From Candidatus Krumholzibacteriia bacterium (GTDB taxonomy: Bacteria > Krumholzibacteriota > Krumholzibacteriia > Krumholzibacteriales > Krumholzibacteriaceae): a DNA stretch of 64,000 nt. The DNA is taken from positions 2,163,309 through 2,227,308 of the forward strand of contig CAWIIQ010000001.1 in assembly GCA_963836185.1 (NCBI GenBank), written 5' to 3'. This document shows, one piece after another, positions 5,498-57,305 of the stretch. Within the stretch, counting starts at the first letter, position 1. Each line of letters begins with the position of its first letter. Made by a program: the position numbers and the translations under genes. The notes below the pieces were generated by a model. The model did no database searches. It was given only the letters and a program-made list of their open reading frames with translations, and was not told where the DNA came from.

Positions 5498-6991
5498 CTA
5501 ATCCTTTAACGTCACGACTTTCGCGTAACCGATCTGACGAAGATCGAGAAGATCCAGCCTCGTCGCCACGGCCTCCTCCTTCGTCCGGAACTCTCCGACG
5601 TAGACCCTGTACCATTTCTGCCCGTTGACCTCAGTCTCAAGAACGATCGAGTCGTATCCGTTCTTCTCGAGATAGTCCGTCTCCGTACCGGCCCTGCTCA
5701 TCTCCCTGAAAGAAGCTACATGGACCGAATAGTGCGAACCTTCCGGCGCGGGCGTGACGGTACCGGGTTTTGAGACTGGCTGAGTCACGGCGGGTTCTGT
5801 ATCACCTCCGCCGGTCACGGCTTCGTCCGTCTTCTCTTCAACCGGTTTCTCGACCGTTTCCCCGGCAGGCCCGGGTTCCGTGACAGTCTCGACACTGTCT
5901 TCTTCCGCGCCGGTGACGGCAGCGCCATCATCCTGCCCGCGGTCCTTTTTCTCCTGGACATCACGCTGCTTCTGCACGAGCTCCGCGGTCCTGCTTTCAC
6001 CTTCCTTGTTGCTTATCGACTTGTGGATCTTGAACCACCAGACAAGGAATATTACGACGACGACAACAACGACCGAAGTGACGACTCTCGGAAGGCTCAT
6101 CCCGCCGCCTCTATGTTTTCCGTCGCTGTCGAGGTCGGCTGTCTTTTCTATCGCGCCCGCTTCATACCGCTCCTCGCCTTTTTCCTCATCTCCGGCCCCT
6201 TCTTCCCCGGACCCGTCATCGATGCGGACAGGCGGCATGAACGACCCTTCCCCCGGGGAACCCGAGGCATCCTCTCCGAAACAGACAAGATCGGCAGGAG
6301 GAAGATCTGCGCCCAGGTCTCCGAGGTTCTTCTGAAGCTGGCCCTCGGGCATCTCCTCTAGCCTGCACGAAAGGAAAATAGCGTCTGCGAGCGACGCGAG
6401 CGGATTGACCGCCCCGTCATCGGTATAGAGAGTCGAGCAATATATGATAACGTCATGGCTGCGGCTGAGAAAATCTCTCACTTTTGTGAATTCCTTCTTC
6501 GCGAAGGGGATCGTGCGTGAGACGGGGAATGAACCGGGGCCTACCACGGTCACGCCGTCGATACCAGTCGGCCGGGCGATCGTTTTAAGCGAACTTCCGT
6601 AGAGCAGCAGGTCCAGGAACCCCTGATCCTCCGTGTTCTCCACAAGGCCGCTGAGCCCCGGCGAGAGAAAATCGAAGTCGACGATCAGGACATCCCTGCC
6701 GTGCTTCGCGAGGATATGAGCGATCTGCAGAACGGCGAAGTCCCTCGCCAGCCTGTTCTCCCCGACAGACATCGCCAGGATGGAACGGTTTCCTTCCTCC
6801 GTGAATCTTCCCTCGATCCTCGCACCGAGTTCTATGAACCGGTCCAGTTCACGAGCCGATGAAAAATCTCCCGATGACATGAACGCCCTGATGCTCTCCT
6901 CGCCAAGCAGGATCGAGAACCCGCCTTCGACGTGATCGCCCTTTCGTCCTTCGTCGGGCATTCCGCGTTCTTCATCGCCCATGTGGATCAC
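5498..6991 (-). CDS. membrane protein: degenerate ParA/MinD-like N-terminal domain, one TM helix, C-terminal SPOR domain
   Basis: N-terminal region resembles a P-loop ParA/MinD fold but lacks a canonical Walker A (SILAMSVGENRLARDFAVLQ...VLIVDFD); acidic linker; TM helix VVTSVVVVVVVIFLVWWF; C-terminal SPOR-like sequence YSVHVASFREMSRAGTETDYLEKNGYDSIVLETEVNGQKWYRVYVGEF. Start overlaps selA stop by 4 nt. Confidence 0.7.
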   Translation of the reverse strand: MIHMGDEERGMPDEGRKGDHVEGGFSILLGEESIRAFMSSGDFSSARELDRFIELGARIEGRFTEEGNRSILAMSVGENRLARDFAVLQIAHILAKHGRDVLIVDFDFLSPGLSGLVENTEDQGFLDLLLYGSSLKTIARPTGIDGVTVVGPGSFPVSRTIPFAKKEFTKVRDFLSRSHDVIIYCSTLYTDDGAVNPLASLADAIFLSCRLEEMPEGQLQKNLGDLGADLPPADLVCFGEDASGSPGEGSFMPPVRIDDGSGEEGAGDEEKGEERYEAGAIEKTADLDSDGKHRGGGMSLPRVVTSVVVVVVVIFLVWWFKIHKSISNKEGESRTAELVQKQRDVQEKKDRGQDDGAAVTGAEEDSVETVTEPGPAGETVEKPVEEKTDEAVTGGGDTEPAVTQPVSKPGTVTPAPEGSHYSVHVASFREMSRAGTETDYLEKNGYDSIVLETEVNGQKWYRVYVGEFRTKEEAVATRLDLLDLRQIGYAKVVTLKD

Positions 6992-8406
6992 TCCTTCTCT
7001 TTCACATCATTCATCGCCGAAGCGAGACTTTCGATAAGCATATCTTCCTGATCGGAGGGTACCGTTCTGAGGTCCACGAATACGGAGTCACCCCGTACCC
7101 TCGCCAGCACCGGCGGATCGAGCCTTCTCAATCCGCGCTCGAGCCGCTGCGGCCCGCCGGTTGTGAGATTAATCCGCAAAAGCACCGTCCGCAAGGGATT
7201 AATAGGAAAGCTTCCCCCGCCGATCGATGATTCCCCTTCTAATACCTCGATCCCGAACCCTTCAGGCGTCATCTTTTCGAGTTTCTCCGCCGCCCGGCGC
7301 GTACGTCCCTCAAGCCCGCTCAGGTCCTCGAGTATCATCCCGAGGGCCGGGATCCGTTCTATCTCTCCGTTCCAGTAGTGGACGAGCACCTGCTCGAGCC
7401 CCGCAAGCGTCATCTTGTCGATGCGAAGCGCCCTCGACAGATGGTTACCGCGCATCCTGCCGATCATGCCCGCCTCCCCGAGGAGTATCCCCGCCTGCGG
7501 GCCGCCGAGTACCTTGTCGCCGCTGAACGAAACGATATCGACTCCCGTGTCGAGCAGGGGAAGGAGGCTCTCCTCTCCTTCGAATCCCTCATTCTCGACG
7601 GGATAGAGGATACCGCTCCCCTGATCGTACATCACGGGGATATTTCTTTTCCGCCCCAGCTCCGCCAGGGCGGCGACCGGTACCTCGTCTGTATATCCGA
7701 CTACCTTGTAATTGCTCGTATGCACCTTGAGGAGAAGAGTGGCTCCCTCGTCTATCGCCCTCTCGTAATCCCCGAGGTTGGTCCTGTTCGTCGTCCCCAC
7801 CTCGATGACCCTCCCCGCGGCCCGGGTAAGGATCTCGGGAAGCCTGAAGCTCCCTCCTATCTCGACGAGTTCTCCTCGCGAGACGGCGACCGCACCTTCA
7901 CGGGCGAATGTATCGACGGCAAGAAGGACGGCGGCCGCGTTATTGTTCACGACCAGGGCCCCTTCGCACCCCGCGATCGCGCGGAGCAGGGCGGTGACCC
8001 TTCTCGAACGGCTCGCTCTCGAACCTGTCGCGACATCCATCTCCAGGTCTGTGTACCCGGAAGCGGCAGTCAGTACCGCCGATGCCGTCGCCGAATCGAG
8101 CACTGCCCTGCCGAGGTTGGTATGGAGGATGACTCCCGTCGCGTTGATCACGCGGCGCTGCCTGTCAGCGACCAGGGATCCGATCTCCTTCGCGGCCGCG
8201 GCGACGATACTCTCAAGGATAAGGCCGGCATCCTCGACAGCCTCTGCCCGGCCGCTGACGATCCCCTGCCTGTACGATTCTATCCTGTCCCTTACGATAC
8301 GGGTTATGCCGCGGCGCGAGACAAAGTTGACCCGCGCGGCGATCCTCTCGTCTTCGAGAACCCGTTCGACCGAGGGTAAATTCCTCAGAGAGGCATTCCT
8401 GTCCAT
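6988..8406 (-). CDS. selA: L-seryl-tRNA(Sec) selenium transferase SelA
   Basis: SelA-like throughout, including the PLP-lysine region FSGDKVLGGPQAG; start placed at internal ATG (MDRNASLRNLPSVERVL) that aligns with SelA N-termini; the longest ORF extends to 8451. Confidence 0.88.
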   Translation of the reverse strand: MDRNASLRNLPSVERVLEDERIAARVNFVSRRGITRIVRDRIESYRQGIVSGRAEAVEDAGLILESIVAAAAKEIGSLVADRQRRVINATGVILHTNLGRAVLDSATASAVLTAASGYTDLEMDVATGSRASRSRRVTALLRAIAGCEGALVVNNNAAAVLLAVDTFAREGAVAVSRGELVEIGGSFRLPEILTRAAGRVIEVGTTNRTNLGDYERAIDEGATLLLKVHTSNYKVVGYTDEVPVAALAELGRKRNIPVMYDQGSGILYPVENEGFEGEESLLPLLDTGVDIVSFSGDKVLGGPQAGILLGEAGMIGRMRGNHLSRALRIDKMTLAGLEQVLVHYWNGEIERIPALGMILEDLSGLEGRTRRAAEKLEKMTPEGFGIEVLEGESSIGGGSFPINPLRTVLLRINLTTGGPQRLERGLRRLDPPVLARVRGDSVFVDLRTVPSDQEDMLIESLASAMNDVKEKE

Positions 8407-42434: not shown

Positions 42435-44301
42435 TCAGTCCAGGAGCTCCGCGTCCAGGCTCTTCATGATCCGGTCCAGTGCCGGGCTTTCGGTTTTTGC
42501 GGCTCCGGCTTTCTTTTTAGCGGCGCGGGGGCCCTTTTTCCCGGGCTTCGCTCCGGCAACCTGCCTGTCTGCCGGCTCAGGACCCTCTTCTGCCCCTTCC
42601 GGCTCTTTGCCGCCCGGACGCGGTTTTGTCCGCGCGTCTATCTCCATCTTTGCCTGGTTGTCGGGACTGCCCACTTTGATATCGACCGTTTCACATGTCT
42701 CCACGGTAAATTTTCTTCCATAGAACTTTTCGAGATGATCCTCTATCAGCCGCCTGTTCTTCGCGTCTCTTATCATCGCCATGGCGAACCTGTTCTGCGG
42801 CGAAAAGGAGAGGATCAGGTTCCCATCCTCGATACCGGCGACCTCCGCCGACATCAGCCATATACCGACGGTGAGCTTCGCTTCCCTGACCTGCGCGAGA
42901 AACCGCTCCCACTCATCCCTGCCACCGAGAGCTTCAAGAAGGGGATTCTCCCTGACCGGTATCTCGGGGGTCCCGGATGGCCCTGCCGCCGGTTCTTCCG
43001 CCGGGGATGCCCCGGCCGCGGGCGAGTCGGACGGCGCGGCAGCGTCGACCATTGCCGACGACATCGCCGGCCCGGATCCTTCCGCTGCTCCCGGCCTTTC
43101 AGCCTGTCCCCGCCTGGCGGCTCCGCTGCCGTTCGCCGCGCTCCCTGATACCGCGGATGCGCCACCCTCTCCGGACTCGAGCCTGCTGATAAGTTCGCCT
43201 ATCTCCACCGCCGATTCCCAGGATGCGGCTTCCGCCACGGCTGCTTCAATATGATATCGCGGATTGCTCGTACCCTTTAGCTCACGGTGCGCCCTCGACA
43301 TCGAGCGGAAAATAAACAGCAGGTCCTCTATCTCGAACTTCTCCGCGATCGCGGACAGTTCCTCTATCTCGCCCGAAGTGAGGTCGAGCCAGTCGGTCCG
43401 GCCTGCCGATACCGAGATGACCAGCAGATTCCGTATCCCTTCGATGAAGCCGATGAAGAACTCTTCGAGATCCATGCCGGAAGCGGTCACCCGGTCCACT
43501 ACCGAAAGCGCCTCGTTCCTGTCACGGCGGCTCACCGCGTCGAGCAGTCCGGAGACGATCTGTGAATCGACCAGTCCCAGGACCTTCCGGACGGTATCGA
43601 GGTCGATCTTTTCTTCGGCGGCCGAAATACACTGGTCCAGCAGTGATTCCGCGTCGCGCATCGAACCGTCGGCCCTTCTGCATATCAATGTCAGCGCTTC
43701 AGCGATCGTACTTTATCTTCTCGGAATCGCATATCCTTTTGAGCTGCCCGGAGAGTTCGGACAGTTCGAGCCTCTTGAAATTGAATCTCTGGCAGCGCGA
43801 CAGGATCGTAGCGGGGACCTTGTGCGGCTCTGTCGTCGCGAATATCAGGTAGACATGTCCCGGGGGTTCCTCGAGAGTCTTGAGCAGGGCATTGAAAGCC
43901 TGCTGAGTGAGCATGTGGACCTCGTCGATGATATAGATCTTCGAGCTGGACTGCGAGGGGGCGTACCCGATCTTCTCCCTCAGGTCCCTTATCTCATCGA
44001 TCCCCCTGTTGGATGCACCGTCGATCTCTATCATGTCGAGATGGTTGCCGCTGTTTACGGAGACGCATGAGGAGCACTTGTTGCATGGCTCGCCGTTGTC
44101 GGGTTCCTCGCAGTTGATGATCTTCGCGAGCAGCCGAGCCGTCGTGGTCTTGCCGCAACCGCGCGGTCCAGAAAAGAGATAGGCATGCGCCAGCCTGCCC
44201 TTCTCGTAGGCCTTCTGGAGTGTGGACGTGACATGGTCCTGGCCGACTACCTCGGCGAAGGTCCCGGGTCTCCATTTTCTGGCAAGCACGAGATAAGACA
44301 T
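42435..44301 (-). CDS. dnaX: DNA polymerase III subunit gamma/tau, interrupted by a 1-nt frame change near 43695
   Basis: N-terminal AAA+ module (GPRGCGKTTTARLLA, zinc module CNKCSSC, SRCQRF) in ORF 43699..44301; continuation (IAEALTLICRRADGSMRDAESLLDQ...) in ORF 42435..43688; reading is restored by inserting one A in tacgat^tcgctg. Confidence 0.9.
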
Positions 44302-46369: not shown

Positions 46370-46723
46370 CTTCCACTCCGGTTTCCAGTTGAAGGACTAG
46401 AATATCGCTCTGAAAGATACCAGTGTGATTATCGCAGTGTCAATCCGTATCAGGGCAAGACGTACAGGAATGAACTTCAGTATCAGGATCACCGGATCTA
46501 TCTATTACTGTACAGTTGCGCCTCCAGTCAAACTGCTCCATAAGATAATTTGGAAATCTTTCTTAATTTCTATATTGACAACATTTTGGAGGTATTTTTC
46601 GACCCGTCCGGACAGGCCTGCGGGATACCCGCCAGAGCGATACAGGCGGCCCGGGAGACCCGCCGGGGGAACAGGCCATCATCTCTTTTTCGCCTCCCAC
46701 AGGAAAACGCCTCTACGTTCTCC

Positions 46724-46753
46724 TGTCACGTCCCCGGGATCCCGTGTTATAAT
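46724..46753 (+). promoter_or_regulatory. candidate promoter (TGTCAC-N18-TATAAT with extended -10 TGT) upstream of the HNH gene
   Basis: cctGTCACgtccccgggatcccgTGTTATAATg about 40 nt upstream of ATG 46791, which has a GGAGG ribosome-binding site. Confidence 0.45.
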
Positions 46754-46790
46754 GTCTGTGCGTGGTGGGTGGACAATGGGAGGTGGAAGT

Positions 46791-47969
46791 ATGAACGACT
46801 CAATCCGGCTCGATTCCCTGGGCACTCTTTCAGACAACAGGCTGATACGACAGCTCGAATCCCTGAGGGGGAAGGAACGCATGCTCCTCGCTGCGGTCCT
46901 TCGGCACCTTCTGGAGATGGAACGTCGAAAGCTCTACCTGCCAAGGGGATATTCGTCTCTGTTTGAATTCTGCACTCAGCACCTGAAATATTCGAGATCC
47001 GCCGCAGGGAGAAGGATCGCAGCTGCCAGGACTATCGGGAAGTTTTCTTCTCTCGAGGGATATCTCCTCAACGGCGAGATCAATCTCTATTCCCTGTCCC
47101 TCATCTCGGGGATCCTGACCAGGGAGAATTTCAGGGAGATCGTCCAGGGGATCAGGAACAGGCCGACCCGTGAGGTCGAGGCCTTCGCGGCTGCGTACAG
47201 GCCCGCCCGCGTCCTGAAGGACCGAGTCAAGCCGGTCTGCGTGATGGTGCCCGCTGCCGCAGACGGAAAAACCGCCCGTCCGGGAAGGACCTCTTCCAGT
47301 CCCGGCACCGGTTCCAGTCACGGCACCGCCGGGTTCGACCCCACTCCCGGTGCCGGGAGTGCCGGATCTACTCCCGGCGCCGGGAGTGGAAAATTCCCCG
47401 CACCGGGATCGGGAAGACCGGGGCCCGAGATTTTCGAACATGTAAGGATCAGCAGGAAGTTCAAGTTCGAATTTGCCGTAAACAACGAGTTCAAGAAAAA
47501 GTTCGACCGCATGAAGGCCCTGCTCTCTAGCAGATATCCCCAGGGTATCAGTTTCGAGGCTCTCTTCATGTTGCTGATGGACGAATACATCGAACGTCAC
47601 AGCCCTGAGGGAAGAGCCGCCAGGCGGGAAAAACGACTGGCAGCGGGGACCAGCTGCGGGACCGGATCGTCAAACGCCGTCAATGGATCGGGCGGCGGCG
47701 ACAGATCCGGCCGGAGAACGCGCAACATACCGGCAAAGGTCCGCGACGAGGTCTTTCTACGCGACGGAGGGAGATGCACCTTCAAAGGCTCAGATGGCAA
47801 AAGATGTAACTCTAAATGGAACCTGCAGATAGACCATATCGTACCTTTTGCGCTCGGCGGGGACGATTCACCCGGGAACCTCCGGCTGCTGTGCGGGAAA
47901 CACAACCGGCTGGAAGCGGAGCGCGTCTTTGGAAGCCGGCACATGGAAAGGTTTAAAAAACGGGAATAA
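46791..47969 (+). CDS. HNH endonuclease with DUF222-like N-terminal domain and Gly/Pro/Ser-rich linker
   Basis: C-terminal HNH motif (CTFKGSDGKRCNSKWNLQIDHIVPFALGGDDSPGNLRLLCGKHN); N-terminal region resembles DUF222; start at ATG 46791 with GGAGG upstream (the upstream in-frame extension is low-complexity). Confidence 0.75.
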   Translation: MNDSIRLDSLGTLSDNRLIRQLESLRGKERMLLAAVLRHLLEMERRKLYLPRGYSSLFEFCTQHLKYSRSAAGRRIAAARTIGKFSSLEGYLLNGEINLYSLSLISGILTRENFREIVQGIRNRPTREVEAFAAAYRPARVLKDRVKPVCVMVPAAADGKTARPGRTSSSPGTGSSHGTAGFDPTPGAGSAGSTPGAGSGKFPAPGSGRPGPEIFEHVRISRKFKFEFAVNNEFKKKFDRMKALLSSRYPQGISFEALFMLLMDEYIERHSPEGRAARREKRLAAGTSCGTGSSNAVNGSGGGDRSGRRTRNIPAKVRDEVFLRDGGRCTFKGSDGKRCNSKWNLQIDHIVPFALGGDDSPGNLRLLCGKHNRLEAERVFGSRHMERFKKRE

Positions 47970-48114
47970 GGCAGGATCATCGAGCGCCATCTGATAACAT
48001 ACTTAAATAATATTGATTACTGTCTTGATTATCAGGTACGCGTGGTATAGCATCATGGCGTCTGAGGTCGCCCCGCCGGCAATACCACAGTGCCCTATGC
48101 TCTGGAGGTCTCAC

Positions 48115-49416
48115 ATGCACCGTATCATCCCGGTCCTGGCCATAACACTAGTCGTACTCTCAGGATGCGGAGACGATTCTACGAATCCCGGTGAAAACGG
48201 CGGAGGTTCGACTGTTACCGGTGAATATGTCGTATTCGCCTGGAACGATCTCGGGATGCACTGCCTTAACGACACATACGATCAGGCAGTGATCCTTCCC
48301 CCCTACAACAATGTCTGGGCCCAGGTGATCGAACGGGGCGACCCGCCCCGGATAGTCACGGCCGGCCTTACGGTCGACTTCAGGCTGGACAACAACACAT
48401 ACTCTTACGGCAAGGAGGAGTACGGGGGATTCTGGGATAATGCTGACGCTCTTTTCCGGTTCGTCCCCGGATTCACAGCCCCCGCCAATAATATCGGCCT
48501 GACGGGAACGGGGCTCTCCGGCCATATGGAAAATGCCTCCGACCATTTTGTCGCCGAAGGGATACCGGTCGTGCCCGTCAGCGATTCATCCGATTACAGC
48601 GCGTACCAGACGGGGATAATCACGGTGAAGGACAACGAGGGGAAGACTGTCGCATCGACGAGGGCGACTGTACCGGTCTCGGACGAGATCACCTGTTCGA
48701 AGTGCCATACCGCCGACGCGTGGACCGATGTCATCGCCGACCATGACCGCCTTCACATGACGAGCCTAGCCGATTCGGTACCCTTCCTCTGCGCTTCCTG
48801 CCATGGAAGCCCCGCGCTGGGCACGGTCGGTACCGGCAGCGCCGGCATATACCTCTCGGAAGCTATTCACGGGGCCCACGCTTCCCGGGAGGCCACATGC
48901 TACGATTGCCACCCGGGGATAAACACGAAGTGCATGAGAAGCGAAAAACACACGGCGGCAGACGGCAATTGTGAGACCTGCCACGGTGACCTGGCCGAGA
49001 TGGCTTCATCGATCGTAGAAGGCCGGGTACCCTGGGCCAACGAGCCGTCATGCGGATCGTGCCATACCGGTGTGCCGGGGATGGAGCCGTCGGGCACCCT
49101 CTTCCGCAACGCCATGGGACACGGTTCTGTCTACTGCGCTGCCTGCCATAACTCGCCTCACGCAATGTACCCCTCGACGCTGATGGCCGACAACTACCAG
49201 CCTATCGAGTACCAGGGCGGAGCAAAGACGATCGGAAGCTGCGGCGTGTGTCATGAGGATTCCAGAGGCGACGTCGACGATATACACGAATTCGAGGAAA
49301 AGCACGGCACCGCCGATCCCGACAGGATCATCAACTGCCATGTGTGCCATACAGTGGTCAGGGACAATACGATGAGCTGGCCACACCAGTGGAAGTGGAA
49401 CAACAGCAACGACTGA
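48115..49416 (+). CDS. octaheme c-type cytochrome lipoprotein
   Basis: Signal peptide plus lipobox (VVLSGCG); eight CxxCH motifs (CSKCH, CASCH, CYDCH, CETCH, CGSCH, CAACH, CGVCH, CHVCH); heme-free N-terminal domain of about 190 aa. Confidence 0.8.
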   Translation: MHRIIPVLAITLVVLSGCGDDSTNPGENGGGSTVTGEYVVFAWNDLGMHCLNDTYDQAVILPPYNNVWAQVIERGDPPRIVTAGLTVDFRLDNNTYSYGKEEYGGFWDNADALFRFVPGFTAPANNIGLTGTGLSGHMENASDHFVAEGIPVVPVSDSSDYSAYQTGIITVKDNEGKTVASTRATVPVSDEITCSKCHTADAWTDVIADHDRLHMTSLADSVPFLCASCHGSPALGTVGTGSAGIYLSEAIHGAHASREATCYDCHPGINTKCMRSEKHTAADGNCETCHGDLAEMASSIVEGRVPWANEPSCGSCHTGVPGMEPSGTLFRNAMGHGSVYCAACHNSPHAMYPSTLMADNYQPIEYQGGAKTIGSCGVCHEDSRGDVDDIHEFEEKHGTADPDRIINCHVCHTVVRDNTMSWPHQWKWNNSND

Positions 49417-49440: not shown

Positions 49441-49480
49441 AAAAAGGGACCGCTCCTGTGAGCGGTCCCTTTCATTTGTC
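49441..49480. terminator. bidirectional rho-independent terminator between convergent cytochrome and porB genes
   Basis: aaaaaGGGACCGCTCctgtgAGCGGTCCCtttcatttg: 10-bp GC-rich stem flanked by an A-run and a T-run. Confidence 0.65.
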
Positions 49481-49504: not shown

Positions 49505-50410
49505 CTATTCCATCCCGGGGATGGCCGCCATCATCTTTTCCTTGGCGAGCAGCCTCTGCCATTTTCTCTCGACATCCTTCTCGATCCCGTCGAGTTCCTC
49601 GTCGGTCAGGTGCCTGAAGCGCCCCTGCGGCTTGAGGTATTCGCGTACCGATGTCGGCTCGAAGTCCTTCCAGACCTCGAGCTTCTCGCCGTACTCGGTG
49701 ATCTCGAGGATCGGGAAAACACGCGATGTGACGGCCCTTCTCGCGCTCTGGATCGAGAGCTCGGGAGCGAGCTTCCAGCCTGTCGGGCATGGCGCGAATA
49801 TATGGATGTACCTCGTTCCCTTCATCTCCTTCGCCTTGCGGAACTTGTTGATCACGTCCTCGGGCCATGCGACCGAACAGGTTGCGATGTAGGGGATCGA
49901 GTGAGCAGCCATGATATCGATCATGTTCTTCTTCGGCTCTCTCTTGTAGTTATCGACCGGCGTTGTGGTGGTCCATGCCCCGACAGGTGTCGAGGATGAG
50001 CGCTGGATACCGGTGTTCATGTACGCCTCGTTGTCGTAGCAGACGTAGATGATGTCTTCGTTACGCTCGGCGGCGCCGGAGAGGGCCTGAAGACCGATGT
50101 CGTACGTGCCTCCATCGCCCGCCCAGGCCATCACGGTCGTCTCGCTGTCGCCCCTCATCTCGAGCCCGGCCTTGAGACCGGCGGCCACGACCGCGGCCGT
50201 CTCGAACGCCGTATGGAATATCGGCAGGTTGACGGCCGAGTGGGGAAACGTGCCGTCGATCACTGCCCAGCAGCATGCCGGGATGGTGAGCGCGGTCTTC
50301 GGACCGAGCGCCTTGAGGGCAAATCTCATAGCCTGAGTAGCTCCGCATCCCTGGCAGGCGAGATGCCCGGAGCCCATCAGCTCTTCCATCGGAATACGCG
50401 GCGCTTTCAT
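49505..50410 (-). CDS. porB: 2-oxoacid (pyruvate):ferredoxin oxidoreductase beta subunit (TPP-binding)
   Basis: Cys ligands for the [4Fe-4S] cluster (CQGCG...PACCW) and the TPP-binding GDG region (AWAGDGGTYDIG). Confidence 0.85.
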   Translation of the reverse strand: MKAPRIPMEELMGSGHLACQGCGATQAMRFALKALGPKTALTIPACCWAVIDGTFPHSAVNLPIFHTAFETAAVVAAGLKAGLEMRGDSETTVMAWAGDGGTYDIGLQALSGAAERNEDIIYVCYDNEAYMNTGIQRSSSTPVGAWTTTTPVDNYKREPKKNMIDIMAAHSIPYIATCSVAWPEDVINKFRKAKEMKGTRYIHIFAPCPTGWKLAPELSIQSARRAVTSRVFPILEITEYGEKLEVWKDFEPTSVREYLKPQGRFRHLTDEELDGIEKDVERKWQRLLAKEKMMAAIPGME

Positions 50411-51559
50411 ATCTTCACTCCTATCCAGTTGATATATCTCTCCGGATCCTTGTCGCCGATCGCCTTGTCGGCGATCTCGCGGACGACCTTCGGCGTGATG
50501 TCGCGGCCACCGAGGCCCGCGATATAGCCGAGGATCGGGATGTCGGTTCGGCCGTAAAGAGCACTCTTGATCTCCTGGTAGAAGATACCGTGCGCTCCGA
50601 ACGAGATGTTACGGTCGATCACGGCGACCTTCTTAGCCTTCGAGAGGACCGCGAAAACCTCTTCGATCGGGAAGGGCCTGAAGACCCTTATCTTCAGCGA
50701 CCCGGCCTTGATCCCCTCGTCGCGGAGATCATCGATAACGACCCTCGTCGTAGAGGCCACGGTGCCCGAGGTCACGAATATGATCTCGGCATCGTCGCAG
50801 CGATAGGGCTCGATGAGCCCGTATCCGCGGCCGAACATCTCTTTGAATTCATTGTCGACCCTCTTGATCACCTCGAGGCCCCTGTCCATCGCTTCCTGGA
50901 TCATGTAGCGCAGCTCCATGTAGTGGTCGGGACCCGCCAGGTTGCCGAACGAATGCTGATCGGCCGTATCGATCTTGATATCGGGCTCGTACGGCGGCAG
51001 AAATTTCCTGACCTCTTCCTTCTCGATGATATCTACGATCTCGTATGTATGAGAGAGGAAGAAGGCGTCCATGACGAGCATCACGGGCATCTGGAGTTCC
51101 TCGGCTATCTTGAAGGCCTGGGGAACTGTATCCTGTGTCTCCTGGTTAGACTCGCAGTATATCTGAAGCCAGCCGACGTCTCTCTGGGAAAGGGAATCGT
51201 TCTGGTCGGTCCAGATCGACCACGGAGGCCCGACGGCCCTGTTGACATTAGCCAGCACGATCGGGAGCCTCGCGCCCACGGCCCAGTGAAGCATCTCGTG
51301 CATGAGGAGCAGTCCCTGGGACGATGTCGCCGTGAAGGTCCTCGATCCGGCGGCCGACGCTCCGACGCAGGCTGCCATCGCGCTGTGTTCCGATTCCACC
51401 TTGATGAACTTCGCGTCCAGTCTCACCGTTCGCACACATCTCGGACAGGAGCTCCACGATATGGGTCTGCGGCGTGATCGGATAGGCCGAGATGACCTTG
51501 GCCTCAGAAGCTTTTACGCCGTAACTGACGGCGTGGTTTCCCATGATGACCTTCTTCAT
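50407..51559 (-). CDS. porA: 2-oxoacid (pyruvate):ferredoxin oxidoreductase alpha subunit, interrupted by a frameshift near 51440
   Basis: N-terminus MKKVIMGNHAVSYGVKASEAKVISAYPITPQTHIVELLSEMCANGE in ORF 51248..51598; remainder (LDAKFIKVESEHSAMAACVGASAAGSRTFTATSSQGL...) in ORF 50407..51435; one extra base at gagActggac. Confidence 0.85.
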
Positions 51560-53235
51560 TTTCCCTCCTCCCGTATCGATATGGCGTTGCGCGGGCACTC
51601 GAACGCGCAGACGAGACAGCCTTTGCAGTAATCGTAATCGAATTCATATTCGTCCTCGTGCCGCTTGATGGCGACGTCGGGACAGTATACCCAGCAGTTA
51701 TCGCAATAATTGCACACACCGCACGAGAAGCACCGGTCCGCCTCAGCGGCGAGCAGCTCCGGTGTGAACCCCGTCTTTATCTCCGAGAATCCAGCCTTCG
51801 CTTCGGATGTCGAGATACCCGGAACGAGGTTCCTCTTCGAGTGGGTAAAATAATCCGTGTTCATATCCTCTATGCCGACAGTCTTCGGCTCCTCGATCTC
51901 CGGCTCTGCCTGACCGGCAAGCATTCGGCCGATCTTCCCGGCTGCCTTGCGTCCGGCTGCGATGGCTTCGACCACACTAGCCGCTCCGGTTACTACATCG
52001 CCACCGGCGAAGATCTTCGGATTGGAAGTATCGCCTGTCTCGCCGCCTGTCTTTATAAGGTTCCATTCAGTCTCGACCGAAGATTCGATCCCTTCGAGAT
52101 CGGCCTGTTCACCGATCGCGGTGAAGAGCCTGTCCACCTCGAGCTCTATCGTCTCGCCCTCGACCGGTACCGGCCTGCGCCTTCCCGAATCGTCGGGCTC
52201 GCCGAGCTCCATCTTCTGGAAGATACCCCGAACGAGCTTTCCGCTCTCGATAACGAGTTCCTTCGGAGCGGCGAGGAAATGGAACGCCACTCCCTCTTTC
52301 TCCGCTTCCTCTATCTCCTCGGCGATCGCCGGCATCTCGTTTCTAGTACGGCGGTATACGACCGTGACCTCACTGCCTGACCGGAGTGCGCACCTGGCGA
52401 CATCCATCGCGGTGTTCCCGCCTCCGACCACGACTACCTTCGCGCCCGGATCGACCTTCTCGCCGCTGTTGACCCTGCGGAGGAAATCGAGGCCGGGCTC
52501 GATCCCTTCCTTGTCCTCGCCATCCACTCCGAGGCCGCGGCTGCTCATCAGTCCCAGGCCTAGGAAAACGGCGTCGTAATCCTTCTCAAGCTGATCGAAA
52601 GTGATATCTGTCCCGACCTTGACACCGGCCTTGACCTCGATCGGCCCCGAGTCGAGGATCTGTGAGACGACCCTGTCGAGGAGTTCATTGGGGAGCCTGT
52701 ACTCGGGTATTCCCCACCTGAGAACGCCGCCGAGAGCCTTGTCCCTCTCGAACAGAGTCACGGCGTATCCCTGCCTGGCGAGATAGAAGGCGCACGATAG
52801 CCCGGCGGGGCCGCTTCCTACGACTGCCACCTTTTCTTTCTTTCCCGCCTTCGTCTTTTCCATCCAGCTGCCGTTCTCGAGACCAAGGTCCCCGAGTGAC
52901 CTCTCGATAGCGTTGATGTTTACTGCCTCATCGTAATCCTTCCGTGTGCACTTCGTCATACACGGATGAAAACAGACCCTGCCCGTCACCGCGGGCATCG
53001 GGTTGCTGTCGATGATCGTCTTCCATGCCTCCTCGTACTTTCCCAGCGTAACGAGATAGATGTACTGCTGTATATTCTCGTTAGTGGGACATCCGAGGAT
53101 GCACGGTGACGTCTTGAAATCGTAGAGAGGCCTTACGTTCCGCCACGATCCGGTGAGGTTCCACATCATGGAACCTGTCGTCATCGGACGGATCGGCATC
53201 TCTTTGTAACTCTCGAATTCGATTTTCTTGACCAT
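51556..53235 (-). CDS. GltD-like NAD(P)H-dependent FAD oxidoreductase fused to a C-terminal 2x[4Fe-4S] ferredoxin (PorD-like)
   Basis: N-terminal Fe-S region and GltD-like FAD/NAD(P) Rossmann motifs (VAVVGSGPAGL, VVVVGGGNTAMD); C-terminus CFSCGVCNYCDNCWVYCP...CKGCLVCAFECP; occupies the slot where porD normally lies between porG and porA. Confidence 0.8.
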   Translation of the reverse strand: MVKKIEFESYKEMPIRPMTTGSMMWNLTGSWRNVRPLYDFKTSPCILGCPTNENIQQYIYLVTLGKYEEAWKTIIDSNPMPAVTGRVCFHPCMTKCTRKDYDEAVNINAIERSLGDLGLENGSWMEKTKAGKKEKVAVVGSGPAGLSCAFYLARQGYAVTLFERDKALGGVLRWGIPEYRLPNELLDRVVSQILDSGPIEVKAGVKVGTDITFDQLEKDYDAVFLGLGLMSSRGLGVDGEDKEGIEPGLDFLRRVNSGEKVDPGAKVVVVGGGNTAMDVARCALRSGSEVTVVYRRTRNEMPAIAEEIEEAEKEGVAFHFLAAPKELVIESGKLVRGIFQKMELGEPDDSGRRRPVPVEGETIELEVDRLFTAIGEQADLEGIESSVETEWNLIKTGGETGDTSNPKIFAGGDVVTGAASVVEAIAAGRKAAGKIGRMLAGQAEPEIEEPKTVGIEDMNTDYFTHSKRNLVPGISTSEAKAGFSEIKTGFTPELLAAEADRCFSCGVCNYCDNCWVYCPDVAIKRHEDEYEFDYDYCKGCLVCAFECPRNAISIREEGK

Positions 53236-53294: not shown

Positions 53295-53855
53295 CTATTT
53301 TTTGGAGATGATCTTCACCCCGTTGAAGGCGTCCTCTGCCGCCTGCATATTCGCTTCCTTCTTGAACGGAACGAAGCCCTCGATCGCCTGTTTGACCGCG
53401 TCGAGTCCGACCAGGCCGGTCGCTCCGGCGAACGCGCCGATGATCGACGTGTTCACGATCGGAGCTGCGAGCGATCCGAGCTTGTGACTCAGCGCTATCT
53501 TAGCCGCGTCGACCGTCGCGATGCTGAACTTCTCGAGCAGTTCATCGTCATCGCACTCCATGTTCGTGTTAATCACGATCCAGCCGCCGTCCTTCAGCCC
53601 GTCTGTTATATTGACGGTCTTCAGAAGCACGCGGTCGAGGACAATGAGATGATCGGGCTCGTAGATCTGACACCTCTCGCGGATCTCACCCTCTGAGGCG
53701 CGGGTGAATGCCATCACGGGAGCGCCCCTGCGCTCGACACCGAAGGCCGGAAACGCCTGGACAAACTTCCCTTCGTGGAAGAAAGCATCTGCCAGGATCT
53801 CCGAAGCGATCACCGAGCCCTGGCCACCCCGGCCATGGGTCCTGATTTCCAGCAT
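53295..53855 (-). CDS. porG: 2-oxoacid (pyruvate):ferredoxin oxidoreductase gamma subunit
   Basis: MLEIRTHGRGGQGSVIASEILADAFFHEGKFVQAFPAFGVERRGAPV is the canonical PorG N-terminus. Confidence 0.88.
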   Translation of the reverse strand: MLEIRTHGRGGQGSVIASEILADAFFHEGKFVQAFPAFGVERRGAPVMAFTRASEGEIRERCQIYEPDHLIVLDRVLLKTVNITDGLKDGGWIVINTNMECDDDELLEKFSIATVDAAKIALSHKLGSLAAPIVNTSIIGAFAGATGLVGLDAVKQAIEGFVPFKKEANMQAAEDAFNGVKIISKK

Positions 53856-54180: not shown

Positions 54181-54189
54181 TGCGATTAA

Positions 54190-54263
54190 TACGCCCAGGA
54201 GGATTCGAACCCCCAACCTCCTGGTCCGTAGCCAAGCGCTCTATCCAATTGAGCTATGGGCGC
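54190..54263 (-). tRNA. tRNA-Arg (anticodon ACG)
   Basis: GCGCCCAUAGCUCAAUUGGAUAGAGCGCUUGGCUACGGACCAGGAGGUUGGGGGUUCGAAUCCUCCUGGGCGUA; anticodon loop CUACGGA; CCA not encoded. Confidence 0.8.
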
Positions 54264-54290
54264 ATATTCTGTCGAAACTATCTCAAATAG

Positions 54291-54382
<92 letters not shown>

Positions 54383-54401
54383 GCTTGACTTCATCTTTTC
54401 A

Positions 54402-54488
54402 TGGCGGAGGGCGAGGGACTCGAACCCCCAAGGGCTTACGCCCGGCGGATTTCAAATCCGCTGCCTTACCAATTAGGACTAGCCCTCC
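54402..54488 (-). tRNA. tRNA-Ser (anticodon UGA)
   Basis: GGAGGGCUAGUCCUAAUUGGUAAGGCAGCGGAUUUGAAAUCCGCCGGGCGUAAGCCCUUGGGGGUUCGAGUCCCUCGCCCUCCGCCA; anticodon loop UUUGAAA; long variable arm; atypical D-arm. Confidence 0.8.
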
Positions 54489-55586: not shown

Positions 55587-56769
55587 TCAGCTCTCTCCCT
55601 TTATGGGGGACAGCTCGCGAAGCCTTTTGACTACTTCGGGGAAGGTATCCAGGAATGCGTCGACATCCTCGTCTGTATTGCAGATGCCAAGGCTGATCCT
55701 GAGCGCGCCCTGCGCCTCGACGGGATCAAGGCCCATCGCCTTGAGGACATGGCTCGGTTCGGGGTCCCCGGTCGCGCAGGCGCTGCCGCTCGAAAGGGCA
55801 AAGCCGAGCATGCTGAGATTGAGTGACATCGCCTCGCCTTCTATGCCTGGAACTGTGACGTTACATGTATTCGGAACCCGCGGAGCTCCATCGCCGTTTA
55901 TATGCACATTGGGCACTTTCTCGAGTATTCCCTCCTGGAGCCTGTCGCGCAGGGCGCATAACCTCGCCATCTCCTCCTCGAGATTCTCCTCGGAGAGCCT
56001 GCACGCCTCGCCGAATCCTACGATTGCGGGGATATTCTCCGTGCCGGGCCTGAGGCCTTCTTCCTGGTGGCCGCCAGTGTATACCGGCTCCAGCGGCGTG
56101 CCGCGCCTGACGTACAGTGCCCCTACACCCTTCGGCCCATAGAACTTGTGGGCCGAAATCGAGAGCAGATCGACTATGGGATCGCCAACATCGACCGGTA
56201 TCTTCCCCATGCCCTGGACGGCATCAACGTGAAGGATGATCCCACGTTCCTTTACGATCCTCGATATCTCCTGCAGCGGCTGGATGACGCCGGTCTCGTT
56301 ATTCGATGACCATTATACTGGCCAGGATGGTGCGGTCGGTCACGGCCGCTTCGAGATCAGCGGCATCGACGGAACCGTCCCTCCTGCAAGGAAGGTAAGT
56401 GACGGTCACGCCTTCTTTTTCCAGAGCTTCACATGTCCTCAGGACCGCCGGGTGCTCTATCGCGGATGTGATGAGGTGCGGCTCGGGGACCTTTTCTCGA
56501 AGCGCCTTTACGACTCCCCTTATCGCCATGTTGTCCGACTCGGTACCGCCCGATGTAAATATGACCTCGGAAGGTTCAGCTCCTATGAAGGAGGCGACGT
56601 GACCACGGGCCTCATCGATGACGCCGCGGTTCTCCTGCCCGAAAAAATGCAGGCTGCTCGCATTGCCGAATCTCGTATGCAGGAAAGGAAGCATCGCCTC
56701 GATTACTTCCTCCCGCATATAGGTGGTGGCGTTATGGTCGAAATAGACCCTGCGCTTCGAATCGTTCAT
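55587..56769 (-). CDS. iscS: cysteine desulfurase (IscS/NifS family), interrupted by a frameshift near 56298
   Basis: N-terminal part (VYFDHNATT...FTSGGTESDN...ASIMV) in ORF 56299..56826; C-terminal part (NNETGVIQP...HVDAVQGMGKIPVDVGD...SAHKFYGPKG...SSGSACA) continues upstream of the annotated ORF 55587..56210; one extra base at gtcAtcgaat. Confidence 0.85.
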
Positions 56770-56864
56770 ATCTTGATTATCCCTGGTGGCAATGATAGTC
56801 CCCAACGCCGGTACTGGCACTGGCACTCTGCTGCAGATATCATCCTGTGGCCGGCGACGCAGTG

Positions 56865-57305
56865 TCAGTCGGCCTTTTCCATGTCGAACAGCCCTTGTAT
56901 ATCAGACAGGTTATACGACGAAAGGACGTTCGATATATCACCCTCGAGTTTCTTCAGCATCGGCACTACTGTGCAGTCTTCGAATTTATCACAGGGATTC
57001 TCATTTTCTCCCTCGCAATCCCCGTTGAGACAACTCGCGACGTAGAATGGCCCTTCCAGAGCCTCTACGACATCGCCGATCTTGATCTCCTCGGGAGGCC
57101 TCTTCAGCCGGAATCCGCCTCCCGGCCCTCTCACCCCTACGATGATCTCATGTCTACGAAGGTGGGCGAGAAGCTGCTCGAGAAAGCTGGAAGAGATATC
57201 CTCCTTTTCCGATATCTCCTTCGCCGATACGGGCTGTCCTCCGTACCTCTCGGACATGACAGCCAGAGCCCTCAGACCATACCTGAACATAGCGGTAAAT
57301 CGCAT
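56865..57305 (-). CDS. iscR: Rrf2-family transcriptional regulator (IscR-like)
   Basis: N-terminal wHTH typical of Rrf2 (MRFTAMFRYGLRALAVMS...SAKEISEKEDISSSFLEQLL) and three Cys (C-x5-C-x7-C-like, CLNGDCEGENENPC) for an Fe-S cluster; directly upstream of iscS. Confidence 0.8.
   Translation of the reverse strand: MRFTAMFRYGLRALAVMSERYGGQPVSAKEISEKEDISSSFLEQLLAHLRRHEIIVGVRGPGGGFRLKRPPEEIKIGDVVEALEGPFYVASCLNGDCEGENENPCDKFEDCTVVPMLKKLEGDISNVLSSYNLSDIQGLFDMEKAD

Follow-up and report, generated by a model that had tools for sequence, protein, structure and literature searches.

A circularly permuted flavoprotein module inside the PorD subunit of a por operon from a Krumholzibacteriia bacterium: a candidate 2-oxoacid:NADP+ oxidoreductase

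Background

What does a por-type 2-oxoacid oxidoreductase do when its delta subunit is part of the same polypeptide as a flavoprotein? The question is raised by a stretch of 64,000 nucleotides (hereafter the window) from Candidatus Krumholzibacteriia bacterium (GenBank assembly GCA_963836185.1, contig CAWIIQ010000001.1, positions 2,163,309 to 2,227,308 of the forward strand), in which an open reading frame (ORF) of 559 amino acids (aa), here called the fusion gene, stands in a por operon where porD would be. From the sequence alone, an original prediction had read its product as a GltD-like oxidoreductase, resembling glutamate synthase's small subunit, that ends in the delta (ferredoxin) subunit and so wires a pyridine-nucleotide-dependent flavoprotein directly into the 2-oxoacid:ferredoxin oxidoreductase (OFOR). 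By examining the domains, conserved residues, genomic context and relatives of this protein, we find that it is very probably a PorD subunit carrying an inserted and circularly permuted flavoprotein module, and we favour, with moderate confidence, the view that the complex would pass electrons from a 2-oxoacid directly to NADP+.

Results

The fusion gene and its operon

On the minus strand the operon runs porG, fusion gene, porA, porB, the order originally predicted, with the fusion ORF at exactly 51556..53235. The TGA of the fusion gene and the ATG of porA overlap as ATGA; judged by coordinates, the porA stop and the porB start overlap similarly. The features of the operon are as follows.

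53295..53855, minus strand: porG, gamma subunit, 186 aa (Pfam POR domain, E = 1.4e-36)
51556..53235, minus strand: fusion gene, 559 aa, PorD with an inserted NfnB/GltD-type flavoprotein module (NF009410 and Pfam)
53104..53235, minus strand: PorD N-terminal arm, residues 1-44, with an invariant TGSWR at 28-32 (VorD and PorD_Arch matches)
51901..53103, minus strand: flavoprotein core, residues 45-445 (Pfam Fer4_20 and Pyr_redox_2; aligns to 9bov_A, 8oh5_C, 5jca_L and 4ylf_B)
51715..51822, minus strand: permuted "N-terminal" helix of NfnB/GltD, residues 472-507, ending in R501-C502-x-x-C505 (NfnL/NfnB alignment)
51559..51714, minus strand: PorD 2x[4Fe-4S] ferredoxin domain, residues 508-559 (PorD_Arch, TIGR02179 and VorD matches)
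50407..51559, minus strand: porA, alpha subunit (POR_N and PFOR_II), read in two frames
49505..50410, minus strand: porB, beta subunit binding thiamine pyrophosphate (TPP) and a [4Fe-4S] cluster (Pfam TPP_enzyme_C)
49443..49472: strong hairpin with a 13-bp stem, from a terminator-like scan, in the gap where porB and the cytochrome gene converge; it probably marks the end of the por operon

Pfam assigns Fer4_20 to residues 41-121 of the fusion, Pyr_redox_2 to 135-428 and Fer4/Fer4_9 to 508-553, the three domains for which a search had been proposed, and both C-terminal CxxCxxCxxxCP motifs are where they had been described (C508/511/514/518-P and C537/540/543/547-P). The GltD-like cysteine cluster reported at the N-terminus is also present, in altered form: it has five cysteines instead of the classical eight, and C502 and C505 come after the flavoprotein domain. 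Residues 26-556 match positions 31-564 of the 566-position NCBIfam profile NF009410 (PRK12771, "NAD(P)-binding protein") at 567.8 bits, with a cutoff of 516, and the fusion is thus already recognised as an unnamed curated family. Its C-terminal 50 residues match the PorD_Arch (72 bits), VorD and Pad-delta models, and the C-terminus matches PDB 9bt4_G, the delta subunit of a pyruvate:ferredoxin oxidoreductase (PFOR), at E = 1.5e-12; in its native form the fusion scores 60.0 bits against TIGR02179 (PorD/KorD delta; cutoff 60.05).

A scan of a genome collection returned 80 loci, 50 of which (L001-L049 and L072) keep the C-terminal dicluster. The 43 full-length orthologues extracted from related loci are of the same length (551-583 aa) and the match to NF009410 runs end to end, so the fusion is not the artefact of a missing stop codon. 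Nor was a separate porD found, in the window or in the 50 related loci: the two motifs of the fusion are the only ones in the six frames of the window, with no second CxxCxxCxxxC protein and hence no separate classical PorD encoded there, and tblastn with the PorD part found no stand-alone PorD outside the fusion in L001-L049 and L072.

Homologues are inconsistently annotated as "NAD(P)-binding protein", "YgfK", "formate dehydrogenase beta" or "glutamate synthase beta-like". As identities for the fusion we rejected GltD (TIGR01317, 207.5 bits with a cutoff of 447.7; TIGR01318, 303.5 with a cutoff of 483; the neighbours are por genes), the YgfK selenate reductase subunit (TIGR03315, 373.2 bits with a cutoff of 835.3), and AegA and the beta subunit of formate dehydrogenase (FDH), for which the scores are under cutoff and the genomic context is wrong. 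No gltB, molybdopterin or FDH gene adjoins the fusion in the window, and none was called beside the triple fusion of Dehalococcoidales described below.

Insertion into PorD

The delta subunit and the flavoprotein do form one polypeptide, as predicted, but they are not joined end to end. The N-terminus of the fusion alone matches VorD and PorD_Arch (E about 3e-4), and an artificial chimera of residues 1-45 and the C-terminal dicluster scores 77.5 bits against TIGR02179 (profile 5-77 of 78), compared with 63.1 bits (profile 26-77) for the C-terminus without the arm. A chimera of arm and dicluster also aligns continuously with the 92-aa stand-alone PorD of locus L059 (44% identity, E = 2e-18). 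Since residues 1-44 are the N-terminal arm of PorD, the flavoprotein has been inserted into PorD rather than appended to it. PorD arm, core, permuted helix and dicluster follow one another in that order, an architecture that as a whole we consider very probably correct.

Circular permutation of the inserted module

A phmmer alignment with PfNfnI-L (5jca_L) falls into two pieces in exchanged order: residues 42-440 of the fusion correspond to NfnL 49-471, and residues 472-507 to NfnL 12-47, the N-terminal helix with the first two cluster cysteines. With TmNfnB the alignment likewise falls in two, the permuted helix matching its residues 15-42. When the module is de-permuted, with residues 466-507 put before 42-450, its score rises from 61.1 bits (30-111) to 86.0 bits (4-111 of 113) against Fer4_20, from 326.4 bits (36-446) to 350.3 bits (8-446 of 449) against TIGR01316, and from 289.9 to 317.0 bits against TIGR01318. 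NfnB and NfnL natively carry the helix-CxxC at the N-terminus, whereas the helix-RCxxC of the fusion lies at residues 472-505, after the core; the closest solved structures, StnC (8oh5_C), Csac NfnA (9bov_A) and T. sibiricus NfnA (9n5u_A), share this permuted order. As judged from these alignments, the inserted NfnB/GltD-type module is circularly permuted in the manner of StnC and of NfnA of NfnABC.

A single-chain AlphaFold2 model (mean predicted local distance difference test score, pLDDT, of 82; core about 85-97, permuted helix 90-93) gave Foldseek TMq values of 0.81 to StnC and NfnA and 0.67 to classical NfnL. The label "GltD-like" is right in that the module is of NfnB/GltD type, but its closest counterparts are the NADPH-input domains of StnC and NfnABC-NfnA and the ferredoxin:NADP+ oxidoreductases (Fnors) of NfnB type, rather than GltD proper.

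Cofactor ligands and the predicted electron wire

Conservation was computed on the 43 orthologues and on a 64-sequence alignment reaching down to about 45% identity. Fourteen cysteines (C45, C49, C88, C92, C96, C502, C505, C508, C511, C514, C518, C537, C540 and C543) are invariant across these 43 to 64 members, and the same goes for E111, R180 and Y294-R295-R296; in the orthologues C547, too, is invariant, and in the larger alignment it is at least 90% conserved. Conservation is also high in the FAD motif GSGPAG (140-145) and the NADPH motif GGGNTAMD (271-278), where most positions do not vary.

In Csac NfnA the FAD-proximal cluster A7 is held by C108, C147, C151 and K170 (PMC11829005), which an alignment offset of 59 maps onto C49, C88, C92 and E111; from this correspondence we infer that the latter four hold the proximal cluster of the fusion. 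By elimination and by the cross-ligation of classical ferredoxins, C45, C96, C502 and C505 would hold the distal one. With fifteen cysteines and one glutamate there are 16 ligands, as many as four [4Fe-4S] clusters require. C45 comes directly after the PorD arm and C505 three residues ahead of the first PorD cysteine, which places the distal cluster where the module is spliced to the ferredoxin domain of PorD; in NfnL and Fnor this cluster is the face toward soluble ferredoxin. By homology with Csac NfnA, StnC, NfnL and four-subunit PFOR, electrons would travel from TPP to the PorB cluster, the two PorD clusters, the distal cluster, the proximal cluster, FAD and finally NADP+, and the PorD ferredoxin domain would occupy the place where soluble ferredoxin docks on NfnB-type enzymes.

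The YRR motif of the fusion aligns with the NADPH-contacting arginine of NfnL, and in an NfnL-like subunit two such arginines have been assigned to the 2'-phosphate (PMC8965080). The nucleotide is accordingly predicted, from these residues, to be NADP(H) and not NAD(H).

Distribution and other fusion states

A database search yielded 7993 homologues at E <= 1e-20, the closest of which (94% identity) come from metagenome-assembled genomes (MAGs) of Krumholzibacteriota. Exhaustive searching of 1.84 billion representatives at 50% identity produced 4753 matches at E <= 1e-30; at least 66 of the best 150 representatives combine the arm motif, the core and the RCxxC-dicluster junction under strict patterns. 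Among 20 diverse clusters no cultured carrier was found, every named member being a MAG.

The 50 dicluster loci belong to Krumholzibacteriota, Latescibacterota, Kryptoniota, "Bacteroidetes" MAGs, WOR-3 and Fraserbacteria. Directly after the fusion and on the same strand, porA follows in all 50, and porG and porB are found in each locus whose contig is long enough, so that the proposed survey of por operons recovered the fused operon across phyla. The other 30 loci (about 40% identity) hold GltD-like paralogues without the dicluster, and none has the fused por operon; four of them have, a few kb away, a distantly related OFOR cluster in divergent orientation, and another, L059, comes after a canonical porGDAB operon.

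The module also occurs in longer fusions. Three proteins of 745-780 aa from Dehalococcoidales and Ca. Hydrothermae MAGs (P0136, P0150 and P0165) consist of PorG, arm, module and PorD, and in the Dehalococcoidales loci L081-L083 (5001-11796) the enzyme is reduced to two genes, a PorG-arm-module-PorD protein (755 aa) followed by a PorA-PorB fusion (707 aa). Next come genes for a lactate racemase (Lar_N) and an Ldh_2-family dehydrogenase, neighbours that indicate pyruvate as the substrate in Dehalococcoidales. The same flavoprotein module is joined to a TPP-binding beta-like domain in P0212 (991 aa) and to an IOR-like alpha chain (POR_N, PFOR_II and TPP_enzyme_C) in P0214 (1108 aa). The covalent wiring of a pyridine-nucleotide flavoprotein into a por-type delta subunit, the core of the original prediction, is thus upheld in silico by the conserved operon, the ATGA overlap, the lack of any other PorD motif in the window, the conserved cofactor sites and these further, independent PorG and IOR-like fusions. 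P0267 (914 aa) carries the module with a DHO_dh domain, resembling dihydropyrimidine dehydrogenase (DPD) in a different order.

Locus L059 has a canonical porG-porD-porA-porB operon and, directly downstream at 5542-8212, genes for a 634-aa GltD-like protein and a NuoG-like 2Fe-2S/4Fe-4S protein. The 634-aa protein combines an Fe-S region of NuoF type with the permuted GltD-like module, and its last residues come right after "RCLRC". We did not use this locus as an unfused ancestor, given the NuoF-type N-terminus and the NuoG-like gene next to it; the GltD-like gene is probably part of a Stn/Bfu-like operon. In L030-L047 (Kryptoniota and "Bacteroidetes" MAGs), all but L032, L034 and L041 have a second, two-gene OFOR after the fused por operon, at about 9.9-12.3 kb in the locus, with alpha at about 25% and beta at about 30% identity; it is probably korAB-like.

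Neighbouring genes

Convergent with porB lies a gene for a 467-aa multihaem cytochrome (48013-49416, plus strand) with cytochrome c7/c3 and MtrC/MtrF-like domain matches. Before it is a 514-aa ORF (46425-47969, plus strand; start uncertain) whose C-terminal part is an HNH endonuclease domain and whose long middle is of low complexity, rich in Gly, Pro, Ser and Thr. Upstream of porG, a cluster of tRNA-Arg(ACG), tRNA-Ser(GCT) and tRNA-Ser(TGA) genes occupies 54189-54488 on the minus strand, preceded by a sigma-70-like promoter (11/12) at 54557-54529 and, between promoter and first tRNA gene, by a hairpin at 54519-54500. Another hairpin, at 53946-53918, lies between the tRNA cluster and porG and leaves just about 60 nt for a por promoter.

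Discussion

The proposed enzyme and its substrate

We hold with moderate confidence that the four genes encode a hard-wired 2-oxoacid:NADP+ oxidoreductase, a reading drawn from sequence comparisons. Such an enzyme would be a por-type complex of gamma, delta*, alpha and beta subunits in which the composite delta carries, inside PorD, a module with FAD, an NADP(H) site and two [4Fe-4S] clusters. Its net reaction would be 2-oxoacid (most likely pyruvate) + CoA + NADP+ -> acyl-CoA + CO2 + NADPH, and neither free ferredoxin nor electron bifurcation would take part. Known modules of this kind point the same way: stand-alone NfnB-like proteins are ferredoxin:NADP+ oxidoreductases (PMC12221290), and an NfnL-like subunit makes the FDH of T. 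onnurineus NADP-dependent (PMC8965080).

The substrate is probably pyruvate. PorG scores 202.5 bits against TIGR02175 (PorC_KorC; cutoff 81.1) and 215.9 against NCBIfam PRK08534 (cutoff 225); the repaired 383-aa PorA reaches 510.6 bits against PorA_Arch (3-386 of 387; cutoff 550); PorB reaches 402.3 bits against the VorB-type PRK11864 and 344 against PorB PRK11865 (cutoff 405 for each). The equivalog models that would fix pyruvate, PorA_Arch, PRK11865 and PRK08534, are therefore all matched below their cutoffs.

Several points weigh against the proposed NADP+-linked enzyme. The substrate signal appears split, PorA being nearest to the archaeal PorA model and PorB to the VorB-type model. Passing electrons of about -500 mV to NADP+ at -320 mV discards energy that a ferredoxin-linked PFOR conserves, and an exposed cluster could still be passing electrons to free ferredoxin. 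Both PorD pieces have pLDDT below 50 in the single-chain model, which offers no usable geometry there, and no biochemically characterised member of the fusion family was found in the literature. In this sequence, finally, an insertion breaks porA, leaving 45 aa at the N-terminus and the other 342 aa as a separate piece.

Alternative readings

Might ferredoxin be a second acceptor? The complex would then also reduce soluble ferredoxin at an exposed cluster, the module would be a built-in Fnor, a valve that balances ferredoxin or the internal clusters against NADP(H), and the product ratio would be set by redox state. The Fdh3 of T. onnurineus, with its NfnL-like subunit, takes both NADP+ and ferredoxin (PMC8965080); NfnB-like Fnors meet free ferredoxin through the distal cluster (PMC12221290), and the PorD domain of the fusion is intact and PorD-like in sequence. 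Here, however, the ligands of the distal cluster fall exactly at the splice points with PorD, so that the usual ferredoxin-docking face is probably occupied, and a six-frame scan for the dicluster motif turned up no gene for a ferredoxin in either operon or window. We think a dual acceptor rather unlikely.

That the cluster is a decaying pseudogene in this genome, with a fusion that has no current function here, is improbable, although porA does carry a +1 insertion at about 51417-51421 ("GAGACTGGAC" against "GAGATC-GAC" or "GAGCTC-GAC" in six close relatives). A nifS/iscS-like cysteine desulfurase gene (55587..56826, minus strand) is likewise broken, its two pieces (175 aa and 207 aa) lying in different frames, and is read in one frame in L002 and L003; dnaX (42435-44301, minus strand), an essential gene, is split at about 43690 into an N-terminal ORF of 200 aa (43699-44301) and a second ORF with the remainder (42435-43688), well ahead of the usual programmed-frameshift site. 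Three broken conserved genes, one of them essential, argue for indel errors rather than decay. Both nifS and dnaX are intact in relatives, and the rest of porA, porB, porG and the fusion gene are full-length and 85-95% identical to their relatives. The porA frameshift is likely an assembly error. A gene for an Rrf2-family regulator (56865-57305) lies just upstream of the split nifS. In L026, from a long-read MAG, the C-terminal part of the fusion is read in two frames (7492-7678, within the PorD dicluster region), probably another assembly indel.

A bifurcating or confurcating OFOR would use its FAD to split or merge electron pairs as NfnSL does. Given a third partner, NADPH might then help to power pyruvate synthesis, or pyruvate oxidation might serve two acceptors, so that a second acceptor or donor would tie NADP(H) to reversible pyruvate synthesis or oxidation. 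The module falls in the NfnB/StnC clade and pairs Fer4_20 and Pyr_redox_2 with a Glu-ligated proximal cluster, as NfnB and NfnL do: the invariant E111 keeps the NfnB-type glutamate, unlike the lysine of StnC and NfnA, and would set a low-potential cluster beside the FAD, wired to an OFOR chain at roughly -500 mV. This glutamate (Glu126) is, however, conserved in non-bifurcating Fnors too, so that E111 is not diagnostic of bifurcation, and the FAD is non-bifurcating in StnC and NfnA, the closest solved relatives (PMC10482914, PMC11829005). Bifurcating NfnB is separated from monofunctional Fnors by Arg333, an upstream nfnA and an N-terminal extension (PMC12221290). In the fusion the equivalent of Arg333 (PfNfnI-B numbering) is I304, with Ile or Val in all 43 sequences; no nfnA lies next to it, the upstream gene being porG in the window and in the loci that reach far enough; and no nfnA-like or other third-site subunit was found in the 50 loci. 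By the published discriminators of residue and neighbour the fusion is Fnor-like and not Nfn, and we rejected bifurcating NfnB as its identity. Bifurcation by this complex thus seems very improbable; if true, this would be a bifurcating enzyme of a new class, and CO2 could be fixed from NADPH.

An unrelated flavoprotein (glutamate synthase small subunit, YgfK or FDH beta) that merely lies beside por genes is effectively refuted and barely credible, for although homologues bear these names and the GltD, YgfK and AegA models score significantly, the scores are far under cutoff (YgfK 373 vs 835, TIGR01318 303 vs 483, TIGR01317 207 vs 448), no GltB, molybdopterin or FDH gene is a neighbour in the window, and the PorD arm and dicluster are in the same polypeptide, with the por context kept and PorG-fused versions in existence.

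Comparison with known systems

The predicted 2-oxoacid:NADP+ oxidoreductase resembles four-subunit PorABGD/VorABGD (e.g. PDB 9bt4) in its gamma-delta-alpha-beta order, in its full-length matches to PorG, PorA and PorB models, and in a delta subunit with the same arm (TGSWR) and both CxxCxxCxxxCP motifs; it differs in the 460-residue flavoprotein insertion and in its predicted acceptor, NADP+ instead of ferredoxin. PadEFGHI of Azoarcus/Aromatoleum (Hirsch et al. 1998, cited in PMC5109826) is reportedly a phenylglyoxylate:NAD+ oxidoreductase whose por-type core is linked to NAD by an extra flavoprotein; that flavoprotein is said to be a separate fifth subunit, and both nucleotide (NAD+) and substrate differ from those proposed for the fusion. 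The por proteins of the window match the Pad gamma, alpha, beta and delta models, all far under cutoff.

StnC (8oh5_C) and the NfnA of NfnABC (9bov_A, 9n5u_A) are the best matches in sequence and fold, with the RCxxC helix after the flavoprotein domain in all, and they too are modules inserted on an Fe-S wire, with non-bifurcating FAD. Their host, however, is NuoG/Fdh-like and not PorD (Pfam found no NuoG-like domains in the fusion), their proximal cluster has a lysine ligand (Lys170) where the fusion has glutamate, and the expected electron flow is opposite, that of the fusion running toward NADP+. With NfnB/NfnL and the Cac_0764-type Fnor (PMC12221290) the fusion shares Fer4_20 and Pyr_redox_2, the proximal Glu ligand, the NADPH arginine pair and the FAD-N5 arginine (R180), and with Fnor also the lack of Arg333 and nfnA; unlike them it is permuted, and its electron donor is covalently attached where theirs is soluble ferredoxin. 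DPD and YgfK have the same string of Fer4_20, FAD/NADPH domain and C-terminal 2x[4Fe-4S], whereas the fusion has no FMN/dihydroorotate dehydrogenase or molybdoenzyme partner and its dicluster is PorD-like and preceded by a PorD arm. The eukaryotic pyruvate:NADP+ oxidoreductase (PNO) of Euglena, Cryptosporidium and ciliates joins PFO to an NADP-reducing flavoprotein and turns pyruvate oxidation into NADPH (PMC6993867); it is a single-chain PFO whose C-terminal module is of the cytochrome-P450-reductase (FMN/FAD) kind, and the two solutions are independent and unrelated. The fusion enzyme would be functionally analogous to PNO, PadEFGHI and the NADP-dependent Fdh3, though differently built. Its two parts, a por-type OFOR and an NfnB/StnC-type NADPH module, appear to be of known kinds; we found no literature description of their combination or of a flavoprotein inserted into PorD.

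Conclusions

NuoG-like proteins (Stn, NfnABC), PorD and IOR-like chains have all taken in the same permuted NADPH/FAD/2x[4Fe-4S] cassette, whose ends meet at one cluster-binding loop. If the proposed function is right, a large and inconsistently annotated family would gain a functional name, and it would be the natural, one-complex counterpart of the PFOR and separate Fnor recently engineered together for higher ethanol yield (PMC12221290). Many uncultured anaerobes of the Krumholzibacteriota, Latescibacterota, Kryptoniota, WOR-3, Fraserbacteria, Dehalococcoidales and Ca. Hydrothermae would then turn the oxidation of pyruvate, or of another 2-oxoacid, directly into NADPH and not into reduced ferredoxin, and metabolic reconstructions that assume ferredoxin as the output would need revision for H2 production, Rnf-based energy conservation and reductive pathways.

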